A DNA stretch of 64,000 nucleotides from contig CACEMR010000007.1 of NCBI GenBank assembly GCA_902560725.1, positions 1,995 to 65,994 of the forward strand, read 5' to 3'. The notes under the pieces were generated by a model, which was not told the origin of the DNA, did not search any database, and was given only the letters and a program-made list of their open reading frames with translations. Origin of the DNA: an uncultured Alphaproteobacteria bacterium (GTDB lineage: Bacteria > Pseudomonadota > Alphaproteobacteria > HIMB59 > GCA-002718135). The position numbers and the translations under genes are program-made. Shown in pieces: positions 19,722 through 50,449 of this stretch (position 1 is the stretch's first letter; each line of letters begins with the position of its first letter).

Positions 19722-20544
19722 TATTTTTTGCTATATCATCAAATTGTTTCAGTTTAATTAATAAATTTTTAACATTTTTTATGTCAATCATGTTTGGTCC
19801 ATCACTAGGTGCATGGTCAGGATCATTATGTGTTTCTAAAAATAAACCAGCAACACCTATAGATATCGCAGCCTTACACAAAGATGGAATATGCTCTCTT
19901 TGACCACCACTTTTATCACCCATTCCTCCAGGTTGCTGAACAGAATGAGTTGCATCAAAAATTATAGGATATTTGTATCTTTTCATAATATCTAATCCTT
20001 TAAAATCATTTATAAGAGTATTATATCCAAAAGATGTTCCTCTTTCTGTAATCATTATATTTTTATTACTTGTAGTTTCTATTTTAACAAAAATATTATT
20101 AACGTCACTTGGTGATAAAAATTGTCCTTTTTTAACATTGATTATTTTTTTTGTTCTACCGGCAGCTAACAATAAATCTGTTTGACGACATAAAAAGGCA
20201 GGAATTTGTAATATATCAATAGTGCTATCTTGATTTAATTGATTACACTGATCTTCATTATGAACATCAGTTAATATTGGCAAATTGAAATGATTTTTAA
20301 TCTTTTCAAATATTTTTATAGCTTGATCAAGTGTAACTCCTCTGTCACTATTGATACTTGATCGATTAGCTTTATCAAAACTAGATTTAAAAATTAAATT
20401 AATGCCAATACTGTCACAAATTTTAAGCAGCTCCTCAGCAATCATTAATGAATGACTTTCATTTTCTATAACGCATGGACCGGCAATTAGGACAAATGGT
20501 TTATCATTTGATATAGAAAAATTTTTAAGATTAATATTTATCAT
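19714..20544 (-). CDS. kdsA: KDO8P synthase
   Basis: [46 protein letters not shown]. Confidence 0.98.
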
Positions 20545-22150
20545 TAATTGCTGCCTTTATAAATGATACAAAAAGAGGATGTGGGTCTAGTGGTCTAGAC
20601 TTTAATTCTGGATGGAATTGAACTCCTATAAACCATTTATGATTTTTACTTTCCAATACTTCTGGTAATAATCCATCTGGTGACATACCACTAAAGTAAT
20701 AACCTTTATTTTCAAATCTTGATAGAAATTTTTGATTGACCTCATATCTATGTCTATGCCTTTCACTAATTTTCGAAGTTTTATAAATAGAATAGATTTT
20801 AGAATATTTTTTCAAAACAGCTTTATATGCTCCTAGACGCATAGTGCCACCTTTGTTACTATTTTTATCTCTTTTTTCAATTTTATTTTTATTTACCCAC
20901 TCTGTCATCAAACCAACAACAGATTTTGAGGTTTTCTTAAATTCTGATGAATGAGCGTTTTTAATTTTGAGAACATTTTGTGCTATTTCAATTACAGCAA
21001 GTTGCATACCAAGACAAATACCAAAAAAAGGAATATTATTTTCTCTTGCAAATTTAATTGCATTAATTTTACCATTAATACCTCTAAACCCAAAACCTCC
21101 TGGAATCAGAATTCCATTACTTCCTCTTAATTTTTTCATCAAGTTTAAGTTACTTTCCTTTTCAGAATTTATCCATTGAATATCTACCTCAGTAAAATTT
21201 TCTATTCCTCCGTGCTCTAATGCTTCATTTAATGACTTATAACTATCTTTAAGATTAGTATATTTTCCAACTACTGCAATTTTTACTTTATGTTTTCTAT
21301 TTTTTATTTTTTTTTGTAAATTAATCCACGGTTTTAAATTAAGCTTATGATTTTTTGATTTATAACCTAAATGTTTTAGAAGTGCCTCGTCTAATCCATA
21401 CTTAGAATATAAAGATGGAACCTCGTAAATTGATTCAGCATTTAAGGCTGGTATAACAGACTCTTTTTTTACATTACAAAATAAAGATATTTTAGAAATC
21501 GAATCTCTGTCTATTTGCTGCTCTGATCTGCACATAATTATATCTGGTTGAATACCAGCATTTAGTAGTTCTTTGACAGAATGCTGTGTAGGTTTTGTTT
21601 TTAACTCTCCTGCTGAACTTAAGTATGGAATATATGTCATATGAATTAAAGCAGAAGATATACTTTTATCATTTCTTATTTGTCTAATTGCTTCCAAGAA
21701 TGGAAGAGACTCAATATCTCCAACAGTTCCTCCAATTTCATAAATAACAATATCTTCATTTTTTAAATCACTATTAATAAAAGATTTGATTTCATTTGTA
21801 ACATGAGGAATAACCTGAATTGTTGAGCCTAGATAGTCACCTTTCCTCTCCTTTAAAAGAACATTGGAGTAAATTTTTCCTGATGAAATGCTATCACTAT
21901 TTTTTGCTGACTGATTTGTGAATCTTTCATAATGTCCAAGATCCAAATCTGTTTCTGCCCCATCATCTGTTACATAAACTTCACCATGTTGATATGGGCT
22001 CATGGTTCCTGGGTCTACATTTAAATAAGGATCTAATTTTCTAATTCTAACTTTAAAATTTCTTGATTTTAGAAGAGTGGCTATTGAAGCTGAGGCTATA
22101 CCTTTACCTAAAGATGAAGCTACACCTCCCGTAATAAAAACATAATGCAT
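20531..22150 (-). CDS. pyrG: CTP synthase
   Basis: ITGGVASSLGKG, DPYLNVDPGTM, KTKPTQHSV, GICLGMQ, QFHPE. Confidence 0.99.
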   Translation of the reverse strand: MHYVFITGGVASSLGKGIASASIATLLKSRNFKVRIRKLDPYLNVDPGTMSPYQHGEVYVTDDGAETDLDLGHYERFTNQSAKNSDSISSGKIYSNVLLKERKGDYLGSTIQVIPHVTNEIKSFINSDLKNEDIVIYEIGGTVGDIESLPFLEAIRQIRNDKSISSALIHMTYIPYLSSAGELKTKPTQHSVKELLNAGIQPDIIMCRSEQQIDRDSISKISLFCNVKKESVIPALNAESIYEVPSLYSKYGLDEALLKHLGYKSKNHKLNLKPWINLQKKIKNRKHKVKIAVVGKYTNLKDSYKSLNEALEHGGIENFTEVDIQWINSEKESNLNLMKKLRGSNGILIPGGFGFRGINGKINAIKFARENNIPFFGICLGMQLAVIEIAQNVLKIKNAHSSEFKKTSKSVVGLMTEWVNKNKIEKRDKNSNKGGTMRLGAYKAVLKKYSKIYSIYKTSKISERHRHRYEVNQKFLSRFENKGYYFSGMSPDGLLPEVLESKNHKWFIGVQFHPELKSRPLDPHPLFVSFIKAAINDKY

Positions 22151-22152
22151 TA

Positions 22153-22190
22153 CGGAATACCCTGATACATAAATGAACTCTTTATAGCAA
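22153..22190 (-). promoter_or_regulatory. Putative pyrG sigma70 promoter TTGCTA-N17-TATCAG with T6-C7-C8-G9 start-site region
   Basis: -35 at 22190-22185, exact 17-nt spacer, -10 at 22167-22162, then GGTATTCCGTA-ATG; no Shine-Dalgarno before the ATG. Confidence 0.6.
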
Positions 22191-22201
22191 GAAATAAATT
22201 A

Positions 22202-22504
22202 TTATTCTGGTATTGATGGTTCTTCAGGAAGTGCTTCTTCTTCATTTAGAGAAGGAAGGGATTCTAAGACATTTTTATCAGAACCAATAGAGGCAGTAAT
22301 TGTAAGAACAACACTCATAACCATAAATAAAGTAGCTGTTAGGGCTGTTAATCTTGATAATAGATTGGCAGAACCACGAGCAGACATCATGCCACCAAAT
22401 GTTCCACCTCCTAAACCTAATCCTTCATTATCTGATCCTTGCAAAAGAACGAGTATTACTAAAGCTAAAGCAAGAACTAGTTGAATTACTATTAGAGTTG
22501 TCAT
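22202..22504 (-). CDS. secG: Preprotein translocase subunit SecG
   Basis: VLLQ...GLG, RGSANLLSRLT, two TM helices; tpiA-secG-pyrG synteny. Confidence 0.93.
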   Translation of the reverse strand: MTTLIVIQLVLALALVILVLLQGSDNEGLGLGGGTFGGMMSARGSANLLSRLTALTATLFMVMSVVLTITASIGSDKNVLESLPSLNEEEALPEEPSIPE

Positions 22505-22538
22505 AACTTTTTTGCTTATATTTAATACATTTCAATTA

Positions 22539-23258
22539 TCAAGATATAATTGTATTGAATTCATTAACTTTCAAAGAAGCACCACCTATTAAACATCCAT
22601 CAACATTTTTTATTTGGTTAATATCTGCTGAATTTGAAGATTTTACTGAGCCTCCATATAATATTTTAAATTTATTAAATTTTTTATCAATATTTCTAAT
22701 ATAAGAATGAACCTCATCAATATCATCAAGTGTCGGTGTTAAACCTGTACCAATTGCCCAAATAGGCTCATAAGCAATTATTGTATTTTGATTATTTGAT
22801 ATTGCAGGAATGCTCTCATTAATTTGTTTTAATAGAACATCTTTTGTGATTTTTTTTTCTTTTTCTTCTAAAGTTTCACCTATGCAAACAACAGGAATAA
22901 TTTTGTTTTTAATCAAATTAATTGATTTTAAATTTACTGCTTTATTACTCTCATTAAAATGTTGTCTTCTTTCTGAATGTCCAACAATACAAAATTTAAT
23001 ATTGTTATCATTTAACATTGCTGCTGATATCTCACCAGTATAAGCACCTTCATTGTAAATCGAAACATCTTGCGCACCTGAGAATAAATTAGAGTTATTG
23101 GTTTTAAGTTGATGTAGAAATATATTTGGTGGGCAGACAACTACACAATTATTGTTACTAGGTATCAATTTTTGATAATATTCTTTTATAAATTGAATAT
23201 CTCCATTTAATTTCCAATTTGCTATAAAAATTGAGGAAAAATTGTCAAAATTCATCAT
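22539..23258 (-). CDS. tpiA: Triosephosphate isomerase
   Basis: ANWKLNG, GAYTGE, VGHSERR, AYEPIWAIGTG, YGGSV, LIGGASL. Confidence 0.97.
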   Translation of the reverse strand: MMNFDNFSSIFIANWKLNGDIQFIKEYYQKLIPSNNNCVVVCPPNIFLHQLKTNNSNLFSGAQDVSIYNEGAYTGEISAAMLNDNNIKFCIVGHSERRQHFNESNKAVNLKSINLIKNKIIPVVCIGETLEEKEKKITKDVLLKQINESIPAISNNQNTIIAYEPIWAIGTGLTPTLDDIDEVHSYIRNIDKKFNKFKILYGGSVKSSNSADINQIKNVDGCLIGGASLKVNEFNTIIS

Positions 23259-23307
23259 AATTACTTTTATTTATAGAAGCTAATAATGTAGAAGCAATCG
23301 AAATTTT

Positions 23308-25131
23308 ATGAGAGCGTTAAATAAAGGCTGGATAGGAATAGCTTTAATCATACTTTTTGGAGCAAGCTTGTTCTTTTTTAGAGGATCATCTAGATATTCC
23401 AATTTGTTCAATTCAGATAATTTCGTAGCTAATGTATCTGGAACTTCAATATCTACTACACAGTTCATGAGATCATTGGAAATGAATATAGGACAATTCG
23501 CACAAATGATTGGTGAAGATCTTACTGGGGATCAGATAAGAGCTTTTCAAATTCATCAATTAGTTCTTCAAAATTTAGTTAATAATGCAATTTTTGAAAA
23601 TGAGTTTGATAATAAAAATTATATTCTTGATGATACAACTATAGCAGAAAGAACACAAAAAAGATTTCCAAATTTATATTTAAAAAATAAAATTAATGAT
23701 GATGCATTAAGCAGCTTTCTTAGACAACAAAGATTAAAAATTCAAGATTTAGTTAATATTGTTGATTATGAAACAAGAGCTGAAGTTTTTGATGATTTAT
23801 TTTTTGAAATAAATTATCCTTCTGAATTATCAGAAAAAATCAGCATGATAAATAATCAATCAAGATTGATAGATCTTTTAAAAGTTCCTTATGATAAAAT
23901 TAAACTACAAGATTATAATATTGACAATCTATCAAAAGATAATGCAGAATTAATCTCTTATTTTGAACAAAATAATAATAATTATATAAGTAAAGAAAAA
24001 AGGGATATATCCTATTTAGTTATCAACAAAAAAAATTATGAAGATAATTTTGTTCCAAATCAAAATGAAATAGTTGATTATTTTAATAACAATAAAAAAA
24101 TTTATATAATTCCTGAAAAAAGGAGCTTTAAGCAATTTAATTTTAAAACTCAAGAGGAAGCTGAAGATTTCAAAATAGAAATTACTGGACTCTCAAATGA
24201 TGAGATTTTAAAACTTATATTAGATAAAAATATAAAATTTAATGAATTTAAAGATGTAAATAGCAATCAAGTTTTAGATGAACTATCAGATGTTATTTTT
24301 GCACTAAACATCGGTCAGATATCTGAAATTGTAAACACAACACTTGCACATCATATTATTATTCTTGATAAAATAGATATTGAAAAAGAACCAATGCTAA
24401 ATGATGTATCTGAAAAAATAAAAACAACACTTACAATGGTAAAATTAGACAATTATTTTAATGATTTAAAATCAAATATTAATCAAAAAATTTTAGATGG
24501 TTTTTCAATAATCGAATTATCAAATGAGTATAATTTATCGATAGAAAATATGAACAATGTTGCTCTTGATTCTGAAAATGAAAATAACTTAGAAAAATAT
24601 GTTATAGATTTATCTTTCTCTCAAAACAAAGATTTTATAAGTGATATTTATGATTTTGATGAAAATATATCTTTAATTATAAATGTAGATAATATTTACC
24701 CTTCAAAAGTAGAAGATTTAGAATCAGTATATGAAATAGTATTAAATGATTTTATTAATTCAAAAAAACTAGAATTTTCTCAAAATCTTTTTGATAACAA
24801 TAAAAATGATAATGATTTAATAGCAATAAATTCTATTTTTAATTTAGAAATTGAAGAATTGAATACTAAATTAAATTCAAATGATATATCCTCAATACTT
24901 AATAATAGTATTGTTAATTCTGAATTAAATAAAATTAATTTTTCTTCTGATGAAAAGAACATTTATTTTTTTAAAGTTAAAAAAATTATAATTCCACAAA
25001 ATATTGATAAAAATCAAAATATAAATTTATTGGCTGATTTAAAAAATGCATTCGGCAACGAGATTATTAAGACTAAAAATATTTCATTTAACGATGAATT
25101 AATTAATGGTCTTTTATCTCAATACAAATGA
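23308..25131 (+). CDS. ppiD: PpiD-like periplasmic chaperone (SurA N-terminal domain plus degenerate parvulin domain)
   Basis: N-terminal TM anchor, VANVSGTSIS, EKRDISY and PEKRSF segments; conserved position divergent from tpiA and upstream of trpE. Confidence 0.75.
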   Translation: MRALNKGWIGIALIILFGASLFFFRGSSRYSNLFNSDNFVANVSGTSISTTQFMRSLEMNIGQFAQMIGEDLTGDQIRAFQIHQLVLQNLVNNAIFENEFDNKNYILDDTTIAERTQKRFPNLYLKNKINDDALSSFLRQQRLKIQDLVNIVDYETRAEVFDDLFFEINYPSELSEKISMINNQSRLIDLLKVPYDKIKLQDYNIDNLSKDNAELISYFEQNNNNYISKEKRDISYLVINKKNYEDNFVPNQNEIVDYFNNNKKIYIIPEKRSFKQFNFKTQEEAEDFKIEITGLSNDEILKLILDKNIKFNEFKDVNSNQVLDELSDVIFALNIGQISEIVNTTLAHHIIILDKIDIEKEPMLNDVSEKIKTTLTMVKLDNYFNDLKSNINQKILDGFSIIELSNEYNLSIENMNNVALDSENENNLEKYVIDLSFSQNKDFISDIYDFDENISLIINVDNIYPSKVEDLESVYEIVLNDFINSKKLEFSQNLFDNNKNDNDLIAINSIFNLEIEELNTKLNSNDISSILNNSIVNSELNKINFSSDEKNIYFFKVKKIIIPQNIDKNQNINLLADLKNAFGNEIIKTKNISFNDELINGLLSQYK

Positions 25132-28528: not shown

Positions 28529-29929
28529 ATGACACCAATTATTACTCGATTTGCACCATCTCCTACTGGTAACTTGCATATTGGAAGTGCCAGAACAGCT
28601 TTGATTAACTTTATAGTAAATCAACAAAATCCCTTATCAAAATTTTATATCAGAATTGAGGATACCGATAAAGAAAGATCTAGATCTGAATTTAGTCAAA
28701 ATATTCTAAAGGGATTAGAATGGCTAGGTTTAAATTGGGAAAATGAAATACAAATTCAATCAAAAAGAATAAAAAGACATCAAGAAATTGCCAACAAGTT
28801 ATTAGAAAATAAATTTGCTTATAAATGCATTTGTTCAGAGGAAAAGCTTAAAACACAAAGAGAGCTAATTAAATCTAATAAAAATTTATCTAAAAAAATA
28901 TGTACAGAATGTAAAATTAATAGTGAAGTCCAAGATTTGAAAGAAGGTTTTGTTATTAGAATAAAAATTCCTGATGATGGAAGTTTAAAGATAGAAGATA
29001 AAATCCAAGGAAATGTGGAAGTATTAAATAAGGAAATCGATGATTTTATATTATTAAGAAAGGATCATTCACCAACATATATGTTATCAGTTGTGGTTGA
29101 TGACAATGATTTAGGTGTTAATTTTATAATTAGAGGAGACGATCATTTAAATAATACTTTCAGACAAAATTATATATACAAATATTTAAATTGGAATTCA
29201 CCAGTATATGCTCATATACCATTGATACACGGAGAAGATGGTTCAAAGCTTTCAAAAAGGCATGGAGCTGTTGATGTTTTAGATTTTAAAGAAAAGGGAT
29301 ACCTACCTGAAGCTATAATAAATAATTTAATATTACTTGGCTGGTCTCCAGGTAAAGAAAATGAATTAATAGATATAAATGAAATTATAGAAAAATTTGA
29401 AATTACAAAATTATCTAAATCTTCAAGTATATTTAGTTATAAAAAATTGAATTTTTTTAATAATTATTACTTAAGAAACCAATCAGGTTTAAATAAATTC
29501 TTAGAATATTGTAAAAATAATAAAAAATTAAAAGATTTAATTTTAAAAAATGAAAATAAAATAAAAACAATCTTTGAGGTATATAAAAAAGATTTAAATA
29601 ATTTTGCAGAAATTCTTGATATTGTAGATGTCTATTTTGATAAAAACTTCAAACTTGACCAAAATGAAGTATTTAGTGATGAATTTAAAAGTTTATACAA
29701 AGACTTTTTAAACTCCATTTCAAATATTGATAATTGGGATAGAGAAAATATTCAAAATACTATTTCTGATTTTCTGAATTTAAAAAATATTAAATTTCCA
29801 ATTTTGGGCAAACCTATTAGATTTTTAATGACAAACAGCTATAATGGTCCATCTATTTCTGATATTTTTCTTATTTTAGGTAAAAAAGATTCAATAGATA
29901 GGCTAAATCAATATATAGAGAAAAATTAA
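28529..29929 (+). CDS. gltX: Glutamate--tRNA ligase
   Basis: [34 protein letters not shown]. Confidence 0.96.
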
Positions 29930-32395: not shown

Positions 32396-33207
32396 TTTAA
32401 ATCCATGCTTGATATAAATATTTTATTTTTGTTTGCATAATTAATTACTTCTTTTTTATCAATAATAAGACATTTATTTTTTTCTAAAAAAATGCCTTCA
32501 TAATTAAAACTTTTTATAGCTTTAATTGTGTCTAATCCTATAAGTGGAATATCAATTATGGAACTTTGATTTTTTTTACTAAACTTTACAATAATGCCTT
32601 TATCTCCCTTTCTTTTATAATGAGAACATCTTTCAATTAATTTGTCAGTTCCTTCAATTGCCTCCAACCCTAAAACTAGTTGATTTTGAATTATCATTGA
32701 TTGACCAACATCTATTTTTTTAAAATATTTATAAATTAATTTTGATTTAGCAAAATTTAGTTTTGCTAATTTTGAAGGTTTTATAGAACTTATATATTCA
32801 TCAACAGAAAATAATTCTGAGCAATATTTTGTCCAATTAAAAAATATAAATCCTTTTGATTGAAGATAATTCTTAATTGAAATTAATAAATTATTATCAC
32901 CTTTTTTTTCTAAGAACAATTTTTTTGCTAATTTTATTGTTTCTAAATCAAAACCTAAATCACTAATACTAGGCCTTCTTAAGCTACCTGCAAATATAAT
33001 TTTTTGAATATTATTTTTTTTTAAAATATTAATTATGTTTTTAATAGAAATAATATCGATTATAAAATATTTCTCATTTTTATATATTTCTTTATTTTTA
33101 ATTGATTTCAATAATAAATAAGTAACATCAAAATTATTAGCTTTAAGAATTGTGCCAATATTGATTGGCAAATTTCCATCTCCAGAAATTAGACCTATTT
33201 TATTCAT
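32392..33207 (-). CDS. lpxI: UDP-2,3-diacylglucosamine pyrophosphatase LpxI
   Basis: SGDGNLP, DVGQS, EAIEGTD, IDIPLIG; sits between lpxA and lpxB. Confidence 0.88.
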   Translation of the reverse strand: MNKIGLISGDGNLPINIGTILKANNFDVTYLLLKSIKNKEIYKNEKYFIIDIISIKNIINILKKNNIQKIIFAGSLRRPSISDLGFDLETIKLAKKLFLEKKGDNNLLISIKNYLQSKGFIFFNWTKYCSELFSVDEYISSIKPSKLAKLNFAKSKLIYKYFKKIDVGQSMIIQNQLVLGLEAIEGTDKLIERCSHYKRKGDKGIIVKFSKKNQSSIIDIPLIGLDTIKAIKSFNYEGIFLEKNKCLIIDKKEVINYANKNKIFISSMDLN

Positions 33208-33985
33208 TTTCTAAAGAGCAGAGTCCTCTTTTAGGGCGATCAGTAATAAATTTAATTATTTCTTGAATTTCAATTAATTCTCTATCTTTTTTTTCTAAAT
33301 TTGAAATATTGTTAATTATTGCTTCTTTATTATTAAATATTTTTCTAACTGTTTTATTAATTAAGTTTATTGATGAATTGTCTAAACCTTTTCTTTTCAA
33401 ACCAATTAAATTAATACCTTTTAAATTTTCTCTGATTCCTGTGTACAATCCATAGGGTATTATATCTTTTTCAACACCGCTCATTCCGCCAATCATTGCA
33501 TATTTTCCTATTCTAACAAATTGATGGACAGCTGAATTACCTCCTAAAATTGCATTATTTTCAATATGAACATGACCAGCAAGAGTTGCATTATTAGCCA
33601 AGATAACATTTGAATTTATTTTACAATCATGAGCAACATGTGAGCCAACCATAAATAAACAATTATCTTTTATTGTAGTTTTTAAACCCCCTCCTTCTGT
33701 ACCTGGATTAATTGTTACATTTTCCCTAAACTTATTGTTACTTCCAATTTCAAGATAAGATTTTTCATTATTATATTTTAAATCTTGTGGTGCGGAACCA
33801 ATGGAAGAGAAAGGAAAGAAAGTATTTTGATCTTTTATGAAAGTATTACCAACAATTGAAACATTAGAGATGAGCTTGTTATCTTTGCCAATTTGTACAT
33901 TATCACCTACTATACAGTATGGTCCAATATAAGAACTCTCATCAATTTCAGCACTTTTTGCAATTATTGATGTAGGATGTATCAC
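33200..33985 (-). CDS. lpxA: UDP-N-acetylglucosamine O-acyltransferase
   Basis: Hexapeptide repeats, PQDLKY, HVAHDC, TLAGHV, AVHQF; GTG start. Confidence 0.97.
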   Translation of the reverse strand: MIHPTSIIAKSAEIDESSYIGPYCIVGDNVQIGKDNKLISNVSIVGNTFIKDQNTFFPFSSIGSAPQDLKYNNEKSYLEIGSNNKFRENVTINPGTEGGGLKTTIKDNCLFMVGSHVAHDCKINSNVILANNATLAGHVHIENNAILGGNSAVHQFVRIGKYAMIGGMSGVEKDIIPYGLYTGIRENLKGINLIGLKRKGLDNSSINLINKTVRKIFNNKEAIINNISNLEKKDRELIEIQEIIKFITDRPKRGLCSLENE

Positions 33986-34040: not shown

Positions 34041-34475
34041 TTACTTATATCTTATCATTGCAGAGAATTCTGATTCACTTAATTTGATATTATTTTTAGA
34101 ACAAATTCCATAAAATTTGTATACATCTCTTACCTTATTCAAGATCTTTACTTCAAACTCAACCTCATCATTTGGTAAAACAGGTTTTCTAAATTTTGCT
34201 TTATTGACACTCATAAATAATACTGACTTTTCTGAATATTCTTTTAAAAGATAAGAAACAACAATACCTGCTGTTTGAGCCATAGCCTCAACTAAAATTA
34301 CACCTGGGACAATAGGATTATTTGGAAAGTGTCCTTTAAAAAAATATTCATTTTCATTAAATTTTTTATAAGAAACACCGTGCTCACCTGGTATTTTTAT
34401 TTCACATTTATCTACAAATAAAAAAGGCTCCCTATGAGGAATTAATTTTTTTATATCATTTACTTCTAATATCAT
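34041..34475 (-). CDS. fabZ: 3-hydroxyacyl-ACP dehydratase
   Basis: IPHREPFLFVD, FKGHFP..PIVPGVILVEAMAQ, FRKPVLP. Confidence 0.97.
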   Translation of the reverse strand: MILEVNDIKKLIPHREPFLFVDKCEIKIPGEHGVSYKKFNENEYFFKGHFPNNPIVPGVILVEAMAQTAGIVVSYLLKEYSEKSVLFMSVNKAKFRKPVLPNDEVEFEVKILNKVRDVYKFYGICSKNNIKLSESEFSAMIRYK

Positions 34476-35457
34476 TTAATTTACCTATTTTTATTATATC
34501 TCTTTTCCATTCATTAATATCCTTAGCTGGAAATCCAGCAACAACTTTATTATCTTCAATATTTTTTGTTACACCACTTTTGCCAGCAATTGTAACATTA
34601 TTACCTATATTTAAGTGTCCGGCTAATCCTGATTGACCACCTATTTTTATATTATTGCCAATTTTTGTGCTCCCAGCAATTCCAACCTGAGCAGCAATAA
34701 TAGCGTGATTACCAATTTCAACATTATGAGCAATTTGAACTAAATTATCTATTTGAGAAAATGCACCAATTTTTGTACTATCAAAAACAGCTCTATCAAT
34801 AGTTGTGTTAGATCCTATTGTAGAGCCTTTAGAAATAATAACATTCCCAATATGTATAATTTTTTTCTTACTTTTTTCTTCAAAACCAAAACCAGCAGAT
34901 CCAATTCGAGCACCAGGTTTTATCTCACAACCCTCTTCAATAATACAATTAGAAATTGTAACATTATTATGGATAATGGAATTATTATTTATCACAACAT
35001 CAGGACCTATATTAACATTTGATCCTATTATTACATCATTAAATATTTCAGTATTAGGTCCGATATTTGTAAATGAGTCAATTTGTACATTTTCATGAAT
35101 TTTACACTTTTTATTTAAATTGACATATTCAGATATAATACCATTTGATTTAATTGTTAAAATATTAAATAGCTCAGTTAAACAAGCAAAAGCAAGATAA
35201 GGATCTTTAACTATTATTGATTTGCAATTATCAGGAAGATATTTTATGTAATTTGAATTTATCAAACAAGCTTTTGCTTTACATATTTTTAAATTATCGA
35301 CATACTTAATATTAGAAAAAAAAGAAATATCTTCTTTTTGAGCATTTAATAATGAGTTTATTCCACTGAATTCTTCATCATCTTTGATATCTGATTTAAC
35401 TTCAATTAAATTTTGATTTAATCTAACAACTATGTCTGAATATTTAATCGTTTTCAA
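34456..35457 (-). CDS. lpxD: UDP-3-O-acyl-glucosamine N-acyltransferase
   Basis: GSAGFGF, IGSNTTIDRA, IDNLVQIAHNV, GQSGLAGHL; hexapeptide repeats. Confidence 0.96.
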   Translation of the reverse strand: MKTIKYSDIVVRLNQNLIEVKSDIKDDEEFSGINSLLNAQKEDISFFSNIKYVDNLKICKAKACLINSNYIKYLPDNCKSIIVKDPYLAFACLTELFNILTIKSNGIISEYVNLNKKCKIHENVQIDSFTNIGPNTEIFNDVIIGSNVNIGPDVVINNNSIIHNNVTISNCIIEEGCEIKPGARIGSAGFGFEEKSKKKIIHIGNVIISKGSTIGSNTTIDRAVFDSTKIGAFSQIDNLVQIAHNVEIGNHAIIAAQVGIAGSTKIGNNIKIGGQSGLAGHLNIGNNVTIAGKSGVTKNIEDNKVVAGFPAKDINEWKRDIIKIGKLNDIRSK

Positions 35458-35977
35458 ATTTTTCGAATTCCAAATTTAAGTTAATTTTTTCTAATTCTTT
35501 TTTTAAAATATTTGTTATATTTATAGCATTTGAAGCAATCAAGTAGCTTGTTGAGTCTAATATCAAATCAATATCATTATTTTTAGCATATTTTTCTGCT
35601 AATACAATTATTTCTTTTAATATTATTTTTCTTATCTCAATAATTTGTACTTGATAGTGCGCATTAAAGGTGTCGATTTGATTTGATAAAGTATCCAATT
35701 CTGTGTTGTAATGAATAATCATTTTATTTATTTCATTTTCATCTAATATAATTTTAGAATCTTCAATTTCTTTACGTAAATAATCTAATTTTTTTTCATT
35801 ATTTAATAAAAAATCAGAATTTTTCTTTTGATCTTCGTCTATTTGTTTATTTATTTTTATATAATACTCATTTAAATTAATTATTTCTTCAATGTCAACT
35901 ACTGCGATATTATTTGAAAATAAACTTTTAGTAAATAAAAGAGAAAATAGAAATACAGATATTAATATTCTGATCAA
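35444..35977 (-). CDS. skp: OmpH/Skp periplasmic chaperone
   Basis: Signal peptide, IAVVD, long coiled coil, IDLILD..NIT; sits between bamA and lpxD. Confidence 0.8.
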   Translation of the reverse strand: MIRILISVFLFSLLFTKSLFSNNIAVVDIEEIINLNEYYIKINKQIDEDQKKNSDFLLNNEKKLDYLRKEIEDSKIILDENEINKMIIHYNTELDTLSNQIDTFNAHYQVQIIEIRKIILKEIIVLAEKYAKNNDIDLILDSTSYLIASNAINITNILKKELEKINLNLEFEKFEND

Positions 35978-39346: not shown

Positions 39347-39966
39347 ATTATTTTATAAAATATTGAGTATGTAATTATAGACAAAATAAAGCTATCAAAA
39401 CGATCGAAAAAACCACCGTGGCCTAGTAATAAACTGCTAGAGTTTTTAATATTATTTTTTCTTTTAAAATAAGATTCAATTATATCACCTAAAAGTGCTG
39501 AAAAGATAATTAATGAAACGAAAATAAAAATTAAATAAGTAAAATCTAAATGAAAATAATATATATAAATAACACTAATCAAAACAGAAAAACAAATACC
39601 ACCTATTAACCCTTCTAATGTTTTGTTAGGACTAATTTTACCAAATATTTTATTTTTACCAATTGCTTTTCCAATAAAAAAAGAAAAAATATCAAATGAA
39701 ATAATTATCAAAATCATTAAATTAAAATTTACTAAAAATTCTTGTTTAAAATCAATAGAATATAAGAAAAACAATGAAATTATTAAATATAAAGAAATTA
39801 TTAATTTTAATTTAATAAAATTAATTATAACTTCATAAAATATTAGCAAATAAATAGCTAAAGCTAAAAATAAAATATACTCGAATTTTATTAAAGATAA
39901 TAATAAATAAATAAATAAAAAAAAAATTGAAACAAAAAACCTACTTATTAAACTACTGTAAACCAT
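39343..39966 (-). CDS. cdsA: Phosphatidate cytidylyltransferase
   Basis: DIFSFFIGK, KISPNKTLEG, GDIIESYFKR..IKNS...GHGGFFDRFDS. Confidence 0.93.
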   Translation of the reverse strand: MVYSSLISRFFVSIFFLFIYLLLSLIKFEYILFLALAIYLLIFYEVIINFIKLKLIISLYLIISLFFLYSIDFKQEFLVNFNLMILIIISFDIFSFFIGKAIGKNKIFGKISPNKTLEGLIGGICFSVLISVIYIYYFHLDFTYLIFIFVSLIIFSALLGDIIESYFKRKNNIKNSSSLLLGHGGFFDRFDSFILSIITYSIFYKII

Positions 39967-40642
39967 ATTTTCTACTTATATTCGTATAATCTTTAATAAT
40001 ATTATCATATTCATTTATCGAAAATTCTGGCCATAAAGTATTAGTAAAGAATAATTCGGTATACGTTAAATTATACATAATAAAATTACTTAATCTTTTA
40101 TAGCCACCAGTTCTAATTAAAATATCTGGATCGTCAATTAAGCCCAAACTAAACAATTCTTTAATTTCTAATTCATTTTCTAAATTTAATGTATTAATTT
40201 TTTTTTTAAATTCTTTGAGAACTTGTGTTATTTCATCTTTAAAGCCATAATTAAAAGCTATATTTAAATTTAAAGAGTTATTAGTTGAGTGAAAATTTTC
40301 AGCTTCATAAAATATATCTATAATTTTCTTTGGTAGATTTTTTCTAGATCCAAAAATTTTAATTTTAATATTTTTTTTAGTAACTAAATCATCAAATAAT
40401 TTAGAAAAATTATTATAAATAATATCATAAATAATATTCAACGAAGGTCTATTGAAATTTTCTGATGAAAGAGTAAATAGAGTTAGATTTGAAATTTTTA
40501 ATGATAATGTATGGTCAACTATTTTTTTAATATTTTCAAAACCTTTTTTGTATCCTTCTACTTTTGAGTAATTATTTTTTTCTGCCCATCTTTTATTACC
40601 GTCTAAAATAAAAGCAACATGACTTAATTGATTATTACCCAA
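39953..40642 (-). CDS. uppS: Undecaprenyl diphosphate synthase (cis-prenyltransferase)
   Basis: HVAFILDGNKRWA, SSEN..RP, DPDILIRTGG..RLSNF, LWPEF; TTG start. Confidence 0.94.
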   Translation of the reverse strand: MGNNQLSHVAFILDGNKRWAEKNNYSKVEGYKKGFENIKKIVDHTLSLKISNLTLFTLSSENFNRPSLNIIYDIIYNNFSKLFDDLVTKKNIKIKIFGSRKNLPKKIIDIFYEAENFHSTNNSLNLNIAFNYGFKDEITQVLKEFKKKINTLNLENELEIKELFSLGLIDDPDILIRTGGYKRLSNFIMYNLTYTELFFTNTLWPEFSINEYDNIIKDYTNISRKYGLQ

Positions 40643-42769: not shown

Positions 42770-43501
42770 TTATTTGTCTTTACTAACTTCGTCTTTAGGA
42801 TTTATATCCTCAAAGTTTGAAGCATCCTCAATAGTTTCAATAAAATATTTTTTATATAAGTTTATTGATCTTAAAGCATCATCATTACCAGGTATAACAT
42901 AATCAATTAAATCAGGATCTGCATTTGAGTCAACAATACCTACTACTGGAATATTTAACTTTTTAGCTTCTAATACTGCAATTCTATCTTTTAAAACATC
43001 AAATACAACTAATAGATCTGGTTTGCCATTTAATTTTCTTATACCACCTATATTTAAATCTAACTTTTGTCTTTCTCTGGAAATATCCAATAATTCTTTT
43101 TTGGATAAATTTCTTGATGAACTTTCGTCATTTAGGAAATTTTCAATTTCCTCAAGTCTTTTTATCGAATTCGATATAGTATTCCAATTAGTTAACGTGC
43201 CACCTAACCATCTTTTATTGACAAAAAAATTATTTTTAATACTTGCGAGTTCTTTAACAGTATCCTCACATTGTTTTTTTGTTCCAACAAATAGTATCTT
43301 TCCAGATCTACTAATTGTTTCATGAACTTTAATTAATGCGTTATTAAGAAGGTCAACGGTAATTCTTAGATCAAAAATATGAATATTTTTTCTTACGCCA
43401 TAAATATACTGGCTCATTTTTGGATTCCATCTTCTAACATTATGTCCAAAATGGACTCCAGATTCTAGTAGATCTTCTATTTTAATTTCTGGTAAATTCA
43501 T
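42770..43501 (-). CDS. rpsB: 30S ribosomal protein S2
   Basis: [33 protein letters not shown]. Start moved from 43525 (inside the leader RNA) to ATG 43501. Confidence 0.98.
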
Positions 43502-43511
43502 TTTATCCTCC

Positions 43512-43556
43512 GGTTCTACCTCCACAGAAACAAAAACACCGGTTTTTTCTGTGTGC
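43512..43556 (-). promoter_or_regulatory. rpsB 5' leader cis-regulatory RNA (S2 autogenous operator, t44-like)
   Basis: The minus strand reads GCACAC-AGAAAAAA-CCGGUG-UUUUUG-UUUCUGUG-GAGGUAGAACC. The CACAGAAA/UUUCUGUG stem, CCGG..GU loop and trailing GUGGAGG.A.AACC follow the known t44/rpsB leader layout (recalled). Confidence 0.75.
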
Positions 43557-43596
43557 TAAATTATTGAAGGTCTCTTATTGGAGAAAAAATATATTT

Positions 43597-46500
43597 TCAA
43601 GATGTTTCTAATGAATAATCGAGTATTTTTGAATTTTTTAGCTCATCTAAAGCTTTATATGATTTAATAGAGTACTTATTAAAATTAAAATTTATCAATT
43701 TATCATCCAGGTTTATAAACAGATCTATATCATGCTTTTTTTCAGATGTTTTTTCAAAAACTCTATCTTTTACTGAAATAATATTTTCAACATTAGAATA
43801 AATGCTAAATTTGAATTTATAGTTTCGAAAGTTATTATCTAAAGATGAAACTTTTTTAATTATATATCGAGTATCGGAATTATTTCTAACTATGTCGATA
43901 TAAAAAATTATTAAATTACCTTCTTTTAATATTGGTCTATATTTATATAAATTCTCTCCAAAAATTGTTAATTCATATTGTGTTTCTATTTCTGAAACTG
44001 TAATAAATGCATATTTTTTTCCATCCTTATTTGATCTTTCTTTAATATCAAGAATAGCTCCTGATATCTTTACAGATTGTATGTCTTTTGTATTAATAAT
44101 ATTTTTAAATTTATTTATTTTTTCAATTTCAAAAAATAGCTTAGGGTAATAGTTTAGAGGATGATCAGAGAAATAAAAACCAATAACTTCTAATTCATTA
44201 GATAAAATATCTAAATTTTTCCATTGTTTATAATTTTGGTTAAATAAATTCTTGTCATCAAAAGTAACTTCTTTTTCTTCAAAAAGTAAGTCTTGGTTTA
44301 AATCTTTTTCTCCACCATAAAGTTCAACAAACTTTGGTACATTATAAAATAACTTTGATCTGTTTTGTTCAATACTATCAAACGCTCCTGCTTGAATCAA
44401 TTTTTCAAGTTGTCTTTTATTTATGACATCTCTATTAACTCTTTTCATAAAATCTATTATATTGTTGAACTTTCCATTTTTTTTCCTTTCATTAACAACA
44501 CTAGAAATTGATTTTATTCCTACACCCTTTATTGCAGCAAGACCAAATCTTATTGATTTATTATTTTCCAAATTTTCAATTGAAAATAAAGGTTCAGAAA
44601 AATTAATATCAGGTTTTAAGAAAGGAATATTTAGTCTTTCAATTTCTTGTTTAAGCAAAATTATCTTATCAGTTCTATCAATTGAATAATTTAAAGTTGC
44701 AGTAATAAATTCATGTGCAAAATTAGCCTTTAAGTAGGCAGTTTGATATGAGATTAGAGCATAAGCTGCAGCGTGGCTTTTATTAAAACCATAACCAGCA
44801 AACTTATCAACTAAATCAAATATTTTTGAAGCTTCTTTTTTATCGATACTATTCTGAACAGCTCCATCTATAAATCTTGACTTTTGTTTATCCATTTCTT
44901 TTTGAATTTTTTTACCCATTGCTCTTCTAAGTAAATCTGCTTCACCTAAAGTATAATTAGACAATACTTGTGCAATTTGCATTACTTGTTCTTGATAAAC
45001 GATTATGCCATAAGTTTCTTTTAAAACACTCTCAAGCATAGAATGGATATAATCAATTTTTTCTCTTCCGTGTTTTCTATTACAAAAAGATGGAATATTG
45101 TCCATTGGTCCTGGCCTAAATAAAGCAACAACAGCAATAATCTCTTCAAATTTATCTGGTTGCAGTTGCCGTAAAACACTTCCCATACCATTACTCTCTA
45201 ATTGAAATATACCTACTGTTTCTCCTTTACTTAATTGATCAAAAGTTTTCTGATCGTCAATAGGGATTTCTTCTATTGAAAAATTAGATTTGTTTGATTT
45301 TATTAATTTGATAGCATCATTAATTATTGATAGTGTTGTTAAACCCAAAAAATCAAATTTAATTAAACCAGCTTTTTCAACATATTTCATAGAAAATTGA
45401 GTAGCATTTGTATTAGTATTTTGATCTTTATATAAAGGTACAACTTTTGATATTTTTTCATGTCCAATAACAACGCCAGCTGCATGAGTAGATGCGTGTC
45501 TATGAGTTCCTTCAATTTTTAAGCTAACATCTATTACATTTGAAATTCTTTCATCATTATTAATTCTCTCTTGCAAACTTCTTTCTGATTTAATTGAGTC
45601 ACTTAATGTTAAAGGATTTGATGGATTAAAAGGAATGAGTTTTGAAAATGAGTCAACCTCACCATATGGAACCTCTAAAACTCTTCCTATATCTTTTACT
45701 ACAGCTCTAGGAGCTAAGGTTCCAAAAGTAATTATATGAGCCACACATTCAGATCCATATTTGCGATTTACATACTCTATAACTTCATCTCGTCTAGTTT
45801 GACAAAAATCAATATCAAAATCAGGCATTGAAACTCTTTCAGGATTTAAGAACCTTTCAAATAATAAATTGTATTTTAGTGGATCAATATCAGTAATTCC
45901 TAAAGACCACGCAGCTAGACTTCCAGCTCCAGAGCCTCTTCCGGGTCCGACAGGAATATTATTATCTTTTGCCCAGTTGACAAAATCTGATACAATTAAG
46001 AAATAGCCAGCAAAACCCATTCTAATTATTATTTCATTTTCATAATTAAGTCTTTCAATATAAGTTTTTGGATCATTTAAATTATTTATTCTAATTATTT
46101 CATCTAGTCTGTTTTTTGAAATTTTTAATAAATAATCCTCTTCAGATAAATTTAATTCATTTTGAAATTTAGGTAATTGAGGTGAAGTTTCCTCTGGAAA
46201 AAATGTACATGAAATAGCTATATTTAAATTATTATTAAAGATTTCTGGAATGTCTGAAAAAACAGATTTCATTTCTTCAGAAGATTTAAAATAAATATTT
46301 TCATTTGATATATCTCTTTGTGAATTATTTATGGTAGATTTTTGAGCTATACAGAGTAAAGCATCGTGTGCAGCAAAATCTTCTTTATCTGCATATTTTA
46401 TATTATTTGAACCTATCAGTGGAATATCATATTTTTTGGAATAATTTATGAAGTTTTTTTCAAAACTATCAATATCAGTGTCATTTATTCTTTGAATTTC

Positions 46501-46995
46501 AAATAAAAAATTATTACCAAAAATATCTTTTAACTTAGTAATTAAATTATCTATATCTTTTTTTTTATTTTCTTTATTTAAAAATAATAAAGGATTATAT
46601 TCCCCTCCAATATAACAAAATAAACCTTTTGAATATTCTGGAATTTGTTCCAAGATAATTCCAATATCTTTGAAATTATTAAGATGCGATAATGAACTTA
46701 AATGTAATAAATTTTTATATCCTATTTCATTTTTAACAAGAAATGTAATTTGTGATATTTTATTATTATACTTTATGTCTATTAAATTAATTGAAGTACC
46801 AATAATAGGTTGTATATTATTTTGTATACATTCCTGGGCAAATTCAAACACTCCAAACATATTGTTATTATCTGTTATAGCAATTGCAGGCATGCCATTC
46901 TTCTTAGCATTTGATACTAAATTACTAATTTTAAGTGTGCTTTCAGATAATGAATAAGACGATAATGATCGTAAATGAATAAAAGTATTATTCAT
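43597..46995 (-). CDS. dnaE: DNA polymerase III alpha subunit
   Basis: PHP domain, GPGRGSGAGS, FERFLNPER.SMPDFDIDF, KFDFLGL, GFNKSH, OB fold; no intein. Confidence 0.98.
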   Translation of the reverse strand: MNNTFIHLRSLSSYSLSESTLKISNLVSNAKKNGMPAIAITDNNNMFGVFEFAQECIQNNIQPIIGTSINLIDIKYNNKISQITFLVKNEIGYKNLLHLSSLSHLNNFKDIGIILEQIPEYSKGLFCYIGGEYNPLLFLNKENKKKDIDNLITKLKDIFGNNFLFEIQRINDTDIDSFEKNFINYSKKYDIPLIGSNNIKYADKEDFAAHDALLCIAQKSTINNSQRDISNENIYFKSSEEMKSVFSDIPEIFNNNLNIAISCTFFPEETSPQLPKFQNELNLSEEDYLLKISKNRLDEIIRINNLNDPKTYIERLNYENEIIIRMGFAGYFLIVSDFVNWAKDNNIPVGPGRGSGAGSLAAWSLGITDIDPLKYNLLFERFLNPERVSMPDFDIDFCQTRRDEVIEYVNRKYGSECVAHIITFGTLAPRAVVKDIGRVLEVPYGEVDSFSKLIPFNPSNPLTLSDSIKSERSLQERINNDERISNVIDVSLKIEGTHRHASTHAAGVVIGHEKISKVVPLYKDQNTNTNATQFSMKYVEKAGLIKFDFLGLTTLSIINDAIKLIKSNKSNFSIEEIPIDDQKTFDQLSKGETVGIFQLESNGMGSVLRQLQPDKFEEIIAVVALFRPGPMDNIPSFCNRKHGREKIDYIHSMLESVLKETYGIIVYQEQVMQIAQVLSNYTLGEADLLRRAMGKKIQKEMDKQKSRFIDGAVQNSIDKKEASKIFDLVDKFAGYGFNKSHAAAYALISYQTAYLKANFAHEFITATLNYSIDRTDKIILLKQEIERLNIPFLKPDINFSEPLFSIENLENNKSIRFGLAAIKGVGIKSISSVVNERKKNGKFNNIIDFMKRVNRDVINKRQLEKLIQAGAFDSIEQNRSKLFYNVPKFVELYGGEKDLNQDLLFEEKEVTFDDKNLFNQNYKQWKNLDILSNELEVIGFYFSDHPLNYYPKLFFEIEKINKFKNIINTKDIQSVKISGAILDIKERSNKDGKKYAFITVSEIETQYELTIFGENLYKYRPILKEGNLIIFYIDIVRNNSDTRYIIKKVSSLDNNFRNYKFKFSIYSNVENIISVKDRVFEKTSEKKHDIDLFINLDDKLINFNFNKYSIKSYKALDELKNSKILDYSLETS

Positions 46996-48923: not shown

Positions 48924-50219
48924 TTATATTTTTAATTTATTGTTAATAAAATTGGTTACATCATCTACTTTAATTTTTTCAACTTTATTATTTAGGCGAT
49001 TTTTAAATTCAACAAAACCATTTTTTAAGTCTCTCTTACCTATTATGATCTGAAAGGGAATTCCAATCAATTCATTATCTGATAATTTTTTACCTACACT
49101 ACAAATCCTATCATCTAAAATAACTTCAATCTCATTTTTCATAAAATAATCATAATATTCCATTGATTTTGTGGCACAATCTTGATCATCTGACATTAAA
49201 TTTATAATAGCCAATTTAAAAGGTGCAACTGAAGTTGGCCATTGAATACCTTTTTCATCATGATTAGCTTCAATTATAGCTCCCACAAGTCTAGAAACAC
49301 CAATTCCGTAAGAGCCCATATGCACTGGAATATTTTTTCCATCTTGATCTTGAATATATGCATTTAATTTTTCTGAATATTTAGTTCCAAAGTAAAATAT
49401 ATGCCCTACTTCAATACCTTTTGAAATTTTCAAATCTTTTTTTTGAATTGGGCAGTTTTTTTCATCATGTTGATCGTCAACTGCAGCATAAAATGATTGT
49501 AATTCATTAGGATCAATATTTTCTGGATTTAAAGACTCTAATTTTTTATCATAATATAGAGTACTCTCTCCTGTTTTGGCAAGTATTTGAAATTCATGAC
49601 TTAAGTTTCCCCCAATTGGACCTGTCTCAGCCCTAAGTGAAATTGGTGTGAGACCCATTCTAATAAATGTTTTAATATAAGCTTTAAACATAATATCATA
49701 TGATTTTTTTGCCTCTTCTTCATTAAGATCAAAAGAGTAGTTATCTTTCATTAAAAATTCTCTACCCCTCATAACTCCAAATCTAGGCCTGACTTCATCA
49801 CGAAATTTCCATTGAATATGGTATAAATTTTTAGGGAGATCTTTGTAAGAACTAATATGTGATTGAAATATATCTGTAATTAATTCTTCATTTGTTGGAC
49901 CATAAAGCATTTCTCGTCCACTACGATCAGTTATTCTTAGCATTTCTTTACCATAGTCATCATATCTTCCAGATTTAATCCATAAATCTGAGGATTGAAT
50001 TGTTGGCATAAGTAGCTCTATAGCTCCCGCTCTGTTTTGTTCCTCCCTTACAATATGTTCAATTTTTTTTAAGACTAACAAACCTAATGGAAGCCAAGAA
50101 TAAATACCTGAGCTAGATTGCTTTATCATTCCTGCTCTAATCATTAATTTATGAGATATAATTTCTGCATCTGATGGTACATCCTTAAGAGTTGGAAGAA
50201 AAAAATTTGAATACTTCAT
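48924..50219 (-). CDS. proS: Proline--tRNA ligase (short type lacking the INS editing domain)
   Basis: SHKLMIRAG, GPTNEE, FRDEVRPRFG.MRGREF.MKD, GIEVGHIF, GIGVSRL. Confidence 0.97.
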   Translation of the reverse strand: MKYSNFFLPTLKDVPSDAEIISHKLMIRAGMIKQSSSGIYSWLPLGLLVLKKIEHIVREEQNRAGAIELLMPTIQSSDLWIKSGRYDDYGKEMLRITDRSGREMLYGPTNEELITDIFQSHISSYKDLPKNLYHIQWKFRDEVRPRFGVMRGREFLMKDNYSFDLNEEEAKKSYDIMFKAYIKTFIRMGLTPISLRAETGPIGGNLSHEFQILAKTGESTLYYDKKLESLNPENIDPNELQSFYAAVDDQHDEKNCPIQKKDLKISKGIEVGHIFYFGTKYSEKLNAYIQDQDGKNIPVHMGSYGIGVSRLVGAIIEANHDEKGIQWPTSVAPFKLAIINLMSDDQDCATKSMEYYDYFMKNEIEVILDDRICSVGKKLSDNELIGIPFQIIIGKRDLKNGFVEFKNRLNNKVEKIKVDDVTNFINNKLKI

Positions 50220-50449
50220 TTATTAAATATATTTGATAAATCAAATCCAAATAAAATCAAAAAAAATAAAATTATAACAGTTAATAATGAAGTTATTATA
50301 AATTTTATGAGTAAATATGGTTTATCTGGAGCACTTTTGGCATGTCCAGATTCTATTTTTTTTGGAGATTTAATCTTAAGTGGTAAAAAAATAAAAAATA
50401 AAATCCACCAAATAAGAATAGAAATTAAAAAATAAGTAAAAACTGCCAT
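50216..50449 (-). CDS. DUF1467 family small membrane protein
   Basis: WWILFFIFLP, GHAKSAP..P, two TM helices; conserved alphaproteobacterial position upstream of proS. Confidence 0.8.
   Translation of the reverse strand: MAVFTYFLISILIWWILFFIFLPLKIKSPKKIESGHAKSAPDKPYLLIKFIITSLLTVIILFFLILFGFDLSNIFNK

Follow-up and report, generated by a model that had tools for sequence, protein, structure and literature searches.

A conserved promoter and start-codon hairpin at pyrG of SAR11 bacteria, a candidate CTP-sensing start-site switch

Outside the locus described here, we know of start-site switching only from the pyrC and pyrD genes of enteric bacteria (Escherichia coli and Salmonella). At pyrC it is established that high cytidine triphosphate (CTP) leads to transcripts that start at C, fold into a closed hairpin and are not translated (PMC6524683). 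A switch of this kind had been proposed, in what we refer to as the original prediction, for the CTP synthase gene pyrG in a stretch of 64,000 nucleotides (nt) from an uncultured alphaproteobacterium (contig CACEMR010000007.1). The whole stretch is called the window below (G+C content 26.5%); all coordinates follow its numbering, and the pyrG element lies on its minus strand. From the comparison with relatives, it is strongly supported that pyrG of the SAR11 lineage carries a real, conserved module composed of a promoter and a hairpin. By analogy with pyrC, the best-supported reading of this module is a CTP-sensing start-site switch on a near-leaderless pyrG mRNA, which we put forward tentatively.

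When the pyrC promoter of Escherichia coli MG1655 is read directly (TATCCT-TTGTG-T6-C7-C8-G9-G), it is apparent that its start register is the same as that of the SAR11 element (TATCAG-GGTAT-TCCGT): in both, T-C-C-G occupies the positions 6-9 nt past the -10 element. Likewise, two 5' C residues close a 5'-terminal hairpin in both systems, a start at the G located two bases downstream loses them, and the predicted free-energy steps from C7 to G9 are similar to those of pyrC. The logic, in which high CTP favors C starts and thus the closed hairpin, would also be shared, for SAR11 as a prediction only. The differences concern the gene, the host and the mode of occlusion. The target is pyrG, so that CTP, its own product, would be the signal, and the host is an alphaproteobacterium rather than an enteric bacterium. 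In MG1655 pyrC, CCGG pairs with a CCGG that overlaps the Shine-Dalgarno (SD) sequence, which is hidden on a leader of ∼35 nt, whereas SAR11 pyrG hides the AUG on a predicted leader of 3-5 nt. SD occlusion, the defining property of the pyrC/pyrD group, is replaced by burial of the start codon, whose predicted effect is functionally analogous. In addition, one arm of the SAR11 hairpin lies inside the coding sequence, where it forces a rare codon, and no PurR-type box is evident at SAR11 pyrG. Given the lack of SD occlusion, the other gene and lineage, and a switching behavior that is as yet a prediction, SAR11 pyrG is not a plain member of the pyrC/pyrD group.

The same gene is controlled in another way in Bacillus subtilis and Lactococcus, where the pyrG leader undergoes CTP-sensitive reiterative transcription followed by attenuation (PMC11109978). 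The two cases share the gene, the presumed signal, sensing by RNA polymerase at initiation and the absence of a regulatory protein. However, the Bacillus-type leader is long, starts with GGGC, gains added G residues, includes a GCUCCC/GGGAGC terminator hairpin followed by a U tract and is controlled at the level of termination; SAR11 pyrG has no GGGC start, no terminator and no long leader, and the predicted control acts on translation. Neither GGGC nor the GCUCCC/GGGAGC terminator hairpin is present in positions 22151-22201. A third point of comparison is provided by the leaderless and short-leader mRNAs of the model alphaproteobacterium Caulobacter crescentus, in which SD-independent initiation is common and the accessibility of the start codon and the length of the leader set the efficiency of initiation (PMC8459731). 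In a true leaderless mRNA the A of the AUG is the first nucleotide, in contrast to the 3-5 nt leader predicted for SAR11 pyrG, which belongs to a class that is poorly translated in Caulobacter. A search of Rfam 15 gave no match near the locus at E-values of up to 10 and none in the whole window at the gathering thresholds.

The genes on the minus strand are ordered tpiA (22539-23258), secG, pyrG, kdsA and eno, and the secG stop codon is located 51 nt upstream of the pyrG ATG. Read on the minus strand, the spacer between secG and pyrG is aataatttatttC-TTGCTA-taaagagttcatttatg-TATCAG-ggtat-T6-C7-C8-G9-ta-ATG. Its features and those of the adjoining genes are as follows:

22202-22504, minus strand: secG coding sequence, upstream neighbor of pyrG, 100 amino acids (open reading frame; PF03840 SecG, on an identical contig).
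22185-22191, minus strand: -35 element CTTGCTA (CTTG[A/C]TA in relatives); TTGCTA occupies 22190-22185.
22168-22184, minus strand: promoter spacer of varying sequence, with a length of 17 nt in the window and of 16-17 nt in relatives (alignment of 150 sequences).
22162-22167, minus strand: -10 element TATCAG (TA[T/A]CA[G/C/A] in relatives), with invariant -12T and -11A and without a -7T.
22157-22161, minus strand: discriminator GGTAT, with a purine-rich 5' end, variable in relatives.
22153-22156, minus strand: candidate start-site block T6-C7-C8-G9, 6-9 nt past the -10 element, invariant in 199 relatives.
22148-22156, minus strand: 5' arm of the hairpin, U6-C-C-G-U-A-A-U-G14, which holds the entire AUG (22150-22148).
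22137-22147, minus strand: hairpin loop of 11 nt, CAUUAUGUUUU, corresponding to codons 2-4 and part of codon 5.
22128-22136, minus strand: 3' arm of the hairpin, U-A-U-U-A-C-G-G-G, composed of the last base of TTT, then ATT, ACG and the GG of codon 8.
20531-22150, minus strand: pyrG, CTP synthase, 539 amino acids (open reading frame; PF06418 CTP_synth_N and PF00117 GATase).

The single positions of the start region are T6 at 22156, C7 at 22155, C8 at 22154, G9 at 22153, TA at 22152-22151 and the ATG at 22150-22148. CCGTAAT (22155-22149) is a perfect inverted repeat of ATTACGG (22135-22129), the two arms being separated by 13 nt. Pairing of G14 with U (22148/22136), and possibly of U6 with G (22156/22128), lengthens the stem to 8-9 pairs. 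All sequence statements of the original prediction, coordinates included, agree with the sequence.

The evidence that carries the module comes from its conservation. PyrG of the window shares 71-93% identity with its counterparts in ∼80 single-cell and metagenome-assembled genomes of Pelagibacteraceae (SAR11); the exact protein was found on one JGI metagenome contig only, when transcript-derived contigs were looked for. In total, 199 sequences were examined (79 derived from genomes, with the region extracted from 78 loci, and 120 from metagenome contigs), and the 150 distinct sequences among them were aligned. For the metagenome contigs, the search pattern specified no more than the residues M-(H/Q)-(Y/F)-V-F-I-T-G-G-V; all synonymous sites and the entire upstream region were free to vary. 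TCCGTAATG and TTTATTACGGG were identical in every one of the 199 sequences. A loss of the complementarity in relatives, which the original prediction had named as what would speak against it, was looked for, and both arms proved to be invariant in the 150 aligned sequences and in all 199 examined. None of the nine stem pairs varied among the 150 aligned sequences. The next outer pair (5/28) was unpaired in 116 of them, which indicates that the stem ends at T6, and the loop varies at five positions in the relatives.

Within the coding arm, the constraint acts on nucleotides and goes beyond what the FITGG protein sequence demands, which had been raised as a caveat. The codons TTT, ATT and ACG of the 3' arm show zero synonymous change in relatives, whereas all 27 of the amino-acid-invariant degenerate codons outside the stem in codons 4-45 vary synonymously, and most of the four-fold degenerate ones use all four codons. 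The odds that the invariant three codons would be precisely TTT, ATT and ACG by chance are 1 in 4060 (arithmetic on codon counts). ACG, described at the outset as a GC-rich choice in an AT-rich gene, is indeed rare in the window (29 of 866 Thr codons, 3.3%). While the metagenome pattern with ACN at codon 7 returned at least 120 matches, no ACA, ACT or ACC was found in the same context among 241 million metagenome records. In the genome collection, ACA, ACT or ACC at codon 7 gave 84 matches, none from SAR11 as judged by record title and 70 of them from pyrG of other phyla, which were used as a control; a search of the same collection for loop-length variants gave eight random matches, none of them pyrG. 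The G of ACG is the partner of C8 in the stem, and selection on this base requires RNAs that contain C8 and whose folding matters. The conservation in relatives is what sets the feature apart from chance.

The element appears to be confined to SAR11 (Pelagibacteraceae) and is no general feature of alphaproteobacterial pyrG. The 70 pyrG genes from outside SAR11, whose N-terminus is equally long (MxxVFITGG), form only weak, coding-derived AUG/CAU hairpins, with a median of -2.0 kcal/mol; the C-C/G-G clamp can thus be regarded as an addition specific to SAR11. Other alphaproteobacterial pyrG genes, with 57-59% identity (L133-L140 except L137), have a different upstream region without the element, and the unrelated character of these regions points to an invention of SAR11. 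A search outward from the most distant relative, L077, found no PyrG with an identity between 59% and ∼70%. Four of the alphaproteobacterial loci (L133, L135, L138 and L140; Rhodospirillaceae-type and others, loci positions ∼520-600) share an upstream block of their own, GTGGATGAAT..CCTTTG..(G/C-rich)..AAATTGrGTACAAG, located ∼10 nt ahead of the ATG. This block seems to be a conserved promoter or leader in its own right, with no relation to that of SAR11. L137 (PASJ01000001.1), a contig labeled as a Pseudobdellovibrionaceae metagenome-assembled genome, contains a secG-pyrG junction of the SAR11 type that is identical to the SAR11 locus L048 over the 80 nt ahead of pyrG and the initial 45 nt of the gene, and its label is probably a binning error.

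Upstream of the start codon, the alignment of relatives shows a profile of CTTG[A/C]TA, a variable spacer of 16-17 nt, TA[T/A]CA, a variable discriminator of 5 bases and the invariant TCCG. The CTTG is conserved at levels of at least 90% to 100% among the 150 distinct sequences, and the columns between the two conserved blocks are variable, with a one-base gap in six of the 150. This is the shape of a housekeeping promoter (CTTGMTA, 16-17 nt, TAWCAN), and the pattern of conservation supports its prediction as such. A -35 of the CTTG type is known from alphaproteobacteria, and that of pyrG matches it. A strict scan for the E. coli consensus misses the candidate promoter because the -10 element has no -7T. 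The missing -7T had been listed as a caveat; it is normal for housekeeping promoters of this class, since in three alphaproteobacteria a -7T is present in no more than 30-43% of the promoters, and those without it are enriched in essential genes (PMC7703639, PMC8407463). The failure of the E. coli-type scan was accordingly dropped as evidence against the promoter, as most alphaproteobacterial promoters lack the -7T. An RpoH-type promoter (CTTG...TATNT) was also considered and rejected; its spacing would be just 12 nt, and the TAT is TCT in one clade.

The position of the predicted promoter places the start block in the window where transcription usually begins. The modal bacterial start lies 7 bp past the -10 element, transcription rarely begins more than 2 bp downstream of it, and purine-rich discriminators favor upstream start positions; a purine at +1 after a pyrimidine at -1 is preferred, and nucleoside triphosphate (NTP) concentrations shift the choice of start (PMC5730371). 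At SAR11 pyrG, C7 would win by position and G9 by chemistry, which would make the choice of start sensitive to NTPs. In the relatives' alignment, the A of the pyrG AUG lies 12 nt past the conserved -10 element, and no alternative conserved -10 is found at the right distance. As this distance exceeds that of the usual starts, we predict a leader of 3-5 nt.

The 5' edge of the stem coincides with this predicted start window. The isolated hairpin has a predicted free energy of -5.8 kcal/mol when the transcript starts at C7 and -1.8 kcal/mol when it starts at G9. With 51 nt of coding sequence attached, the computed probabilities (P) that the AUG is free are as follows:

Start at C7: 0.005 at 37°C, 0.001 at 15°C.
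Start at C8: 0.09 at 37°C, 0.03 at 15°C.
Start at G9: 0.51 at 37°C, 0.18 at 15°C.

The comparison of the C7 and G9 folds, proposed earlier as a check, therefore gives a gap of ∼100-fold in predicted AUG accessibility. An RNA that reads through from secG is predicted to be closed (P = 0.002).

In the proposed mechanism, a dedicated promoter in the 51-nt spacer would place its start window on the invariant T6-C7-C8-G9, 3-5 nt ahead of the pyrG AUG. In transcripts that start at C7 (or C8), favored by position, the two 5' C residues would clamp a hairpin of 8-9 bp (CCGUAAUG / UAUUACGG) that buries the start codon, so these transcripts would be poorly translated. Transcripts that start at G9, the chemically favored purine, would lack the clamp, and their AUG would be largely free. 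Because a start at C requires high CTP, the ratio of CTP to guanosine triphosphate (GTP) would set the ratio of C7 to G9 starts, and CTP synthase would be translated less at high CTP. The output of the enzyme would go down when CTP is plentiful and up when CTP is scarce or GTP is high. RNA polymerase would be the sensor, and neither a regulatory protein nor a ligand-binding RNA would be needed. What the sequences establish is the layout of the element, its invariance in SAR11, the nucleotide constraint on the coding arm and the predicted gap between the folds. We infer that the promoter fires, that it starts at C7/C8 and at G9, that the ratio of these starts follows CTP/GTP and that the short transcripts are translated.

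The conserved promoter-hairpin module, the start register and the gap between the folds speak for the CTP switch as originally read, and several points weigh against it. The covariation that it had been suggested to look for in relatives does not occur, because all nine stem pairs are invariant in the 150 sequences; the RNA structure is in consequence deduced from complementarity and constraint and not proven. Judged on its own, the pyrG inverted repeat is no more than chance could produce: perfect 7-bp inverted repeats with three or more G/C pairs and a loop of 3-15 nt number 15 in the window, where Markov simulations give an expectation of 9.9 ± 3.3. The link to CTP comes from analogy and from the function of the gene, and in the literature no paper on pyrG regulation in Pelagibacter and no start-site data for SAR11 were found. 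The invariance of T6 would be explained equally well by the U6.G pair in longer transcripts. The transcript that starts at G9 is predicted to be mostly closed at 15°C (P = 0.18), closer to the temperatures of the SAR11 habitat. Weak expression is possible even in the "on" state, as leaders of the lengths expected from G9 (3 nt) and C7 (5 nt) are translated poorly in Caulobacter, at ∼17% and ∼10% of true leaderless initiation, respectively (PMC8459731). Finally, a scan of positions 20400-23500 gave no terminator-like site, hence none is predicted 3' of secG. For this reason read-through RNAs in which the hairpin is always formed probably exist, and they would dilute any switch.

An alternative that we consider rather unlikely but the most serious of those weighed is that the hairpin is constitutive. 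All transcripts, whether from a fixed start at or before C7 or from read-through of secG, would then carry the full stem, which would damp or stabilize the mRNA, with no nucleotide sensed. The same conservation data fit such a hairpin, closed read-through RNAs are likely given the missing terminator, and the invariant T6 can add a U.G pair to the stem, which would benefit only RNAs whose start lies upstream of C7. In E. coli, stabilization of an mRNA by a stem at its very 5' end is known (ompA). However, a predicted AUG accessibility of ≤0.005 on the mRNA of an essential enzyme, with nothing to open it, would be an odd design. A constitutive hairpin also leaves unexplained why the 5' edge of the stem falls exactly in the start window and why the order is the pyrC-like Y-C-C-G with a purine at position 9.

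The hairpin may also be a translational operator that is opened in some other way, by an RNA-binding protein or helicase, by temperature (as an RNA thermometer) or by ribosomes on read-through transcripts. We regard this as improbable. It is consistent with the same conservation data and with a hairpin that covers the AUG, is A-U rich save for the clamp and has a predicted temperature dependence of opening. RNA thermometers, however, usually have mismatched or weak stems and not a basal G-C clamp. The secG stop codon, at 51 nt upstream, is too distant for a terminating ribosome to melt the stem, no conserved alternative partner for either arm is seen in the 51-nt spacer, no Rfam family matches and no candidate protein was identified.

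It is very unlikely that the constraint reflects an operator at the DNA level, at which a regulator would bind the 10-bp palindrome TAATGCATTA (22152-22143) or the symmetry of the promoter (TTGATA...TATCAA), with no role for RNA structure. Invariance without covariation cannot alone separate DNA function from RNA function, and the palindrome does exist in the window, where it spans the pyrG start codon. In most relatives, however, it is lost and replaced by TAATGCATTT or TAATGCAATA, so that its occurrence here is probably incidental. Nor do the -35 and -10 blocks change together in the manner of half-sites, since CTTGCTA is found with TATCAC. Two mutually complementary invariant blocks with variable bases between them are the pattern of a stem-loop. 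Both forms of the operator, TAATGCATTA and TTGATA/TATCAA, were dropped, as neither is conserved or covaries.

We give still slightly less weight to a leader peptide, MYQGIP, encoded by an upstream open reading frame (ATG TAT CAG GGT ATT CCG TAA, 22170-22150), whose translation would let ribosomes open the stem and re-initiate. The window does contain this short frame, which ends in Pro-stop and whose stop codon overlaps the pyrG start (UAAUG); its ATG is kept in many members of the clade. The start is nevertheless not conserved, being ATA in several lineages and CTG throughout a clade of ∼76% identity, and for this reason leader-peptide control was dropped. In L077 the frame is cut short by an earlier TAA. 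Non-synonymous changes occur in its codons (Q/H, I/Y), which is how a discriminator would behave, and the frame has no SD and no A-rich leader. Moreover, as the frame overlies the -10 element, it would exist only on read-through RNA. Lastly, chance complementarity combined with ordinary constraint on the 5' end of the coding sequence, although such repeats are about as frequent as expected in a single sequence and weak AUG hairpins arise as a by-product of MxxVFITGG coding in other phyla, is scarcely credible for a rare codon that is frozen in 199 of 199 sequences, with no exception in 241 million metagenome records, beside saturated synonymous sites, and that is complementary to an equally frozen non-coding block.

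If the start-site switch is correct, it is possible, though we state it with a little more reserve than the switch itself, that SAR11 bacteria autoregulate CTP synthase with ∼60 nt of DNA and no dedicated sensor, with two extra C residues locking a near-leaderless AUG. SAR11 is the most abundant marine bacterium, with extremely streamlined genomes that encode few transcription factors, and to our knowledge the balancing of its nucleotide pools is largely uncharted. An essential enzyme would in this case be placed under end-product control by one promoter and one hairpin, with RNA polymerase doing the sensing. Start-site-switch control would then have its first described case beyond the enteric pyr genes, which would also be the first at pyrG and the first with the AUG as its target in place of the SD; the element shows no variant across the SAR11 clades sampled. 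The mechanism would reach a further gene and a further phylum-level lineage, with a near-leaderless start codon as a new mode of occlusion. Even if the link to CTP should fail, a cis element under strong constraint extends across the start of pyrG, which is relevant to annotation and to analyses of codon usage.

Within the window, the lack of an SD sequence at pyrG, correctly noted before, turned out not to be distinctive. An SD core (GGAG, GAGG or AGGA) within 20 nt upstream of the start was found for seven of the 60 window genes with an ATG start, and the remaining 53 have none. Most starts in the window are preceded by A/T-rich sequence and SD-independent initiation is the norm here; pyrG is unusual among the window genes in having G/C-rich sequence ahead of its ATG. 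In the predicted cost of freeing the AUG, computed in a context of -30 to +50, pyrG ranks third of the 60 genes. The costs are 6.9 kcal/mol for gltX (28529-29929, plus strand), 6.3 kcal/mol for dnaE (43597-46995, minus strand) and 4.9 kcal/mol for pyrG.

The combination of a -10 element and start block as at pyrG (TAWCA-N6-TCCG) occurs only once more in the window, within a coding region. The promoter pattern TTGMHW-N16-17-TAWCA was found 10 times against 8.9 expected, and as this is a chance frequency it was dropped as a general promoter motif of the genome. Likewise, pyrH was rejected as a further carrier of a module of the pyrG type, since it lies inside an rpsB-tsf-pyrH-frr cluster without a spacer of its own. 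A promoter-like sequence, TTGATT-N16-TATCAA, precedes proS (48924-50260, minus strand), and its -10 element ends just 13 nt ahead of the ATG, so very short leaders may be common in this genome.

The window contains neither tRNA nor tmRNA genes. The 95-nt spacer (43502-43596, minus strand) upstream of rpsB (42770-43501) is unusually G/C-rich, ends in GGAGGTAGAACCGGAGGATAAA-ATG and contains two SD-like cores; it matches no Rfam family at the gathering score and may be an autoregulatory leader for S2. The genes at 34456-35457, 35444-35977, 39953-40642 and 33200-33985 (minus strand) have apparent TTG or GTG starts, which accounts for "gaps" in a gene list of the window that is based on ATG only.

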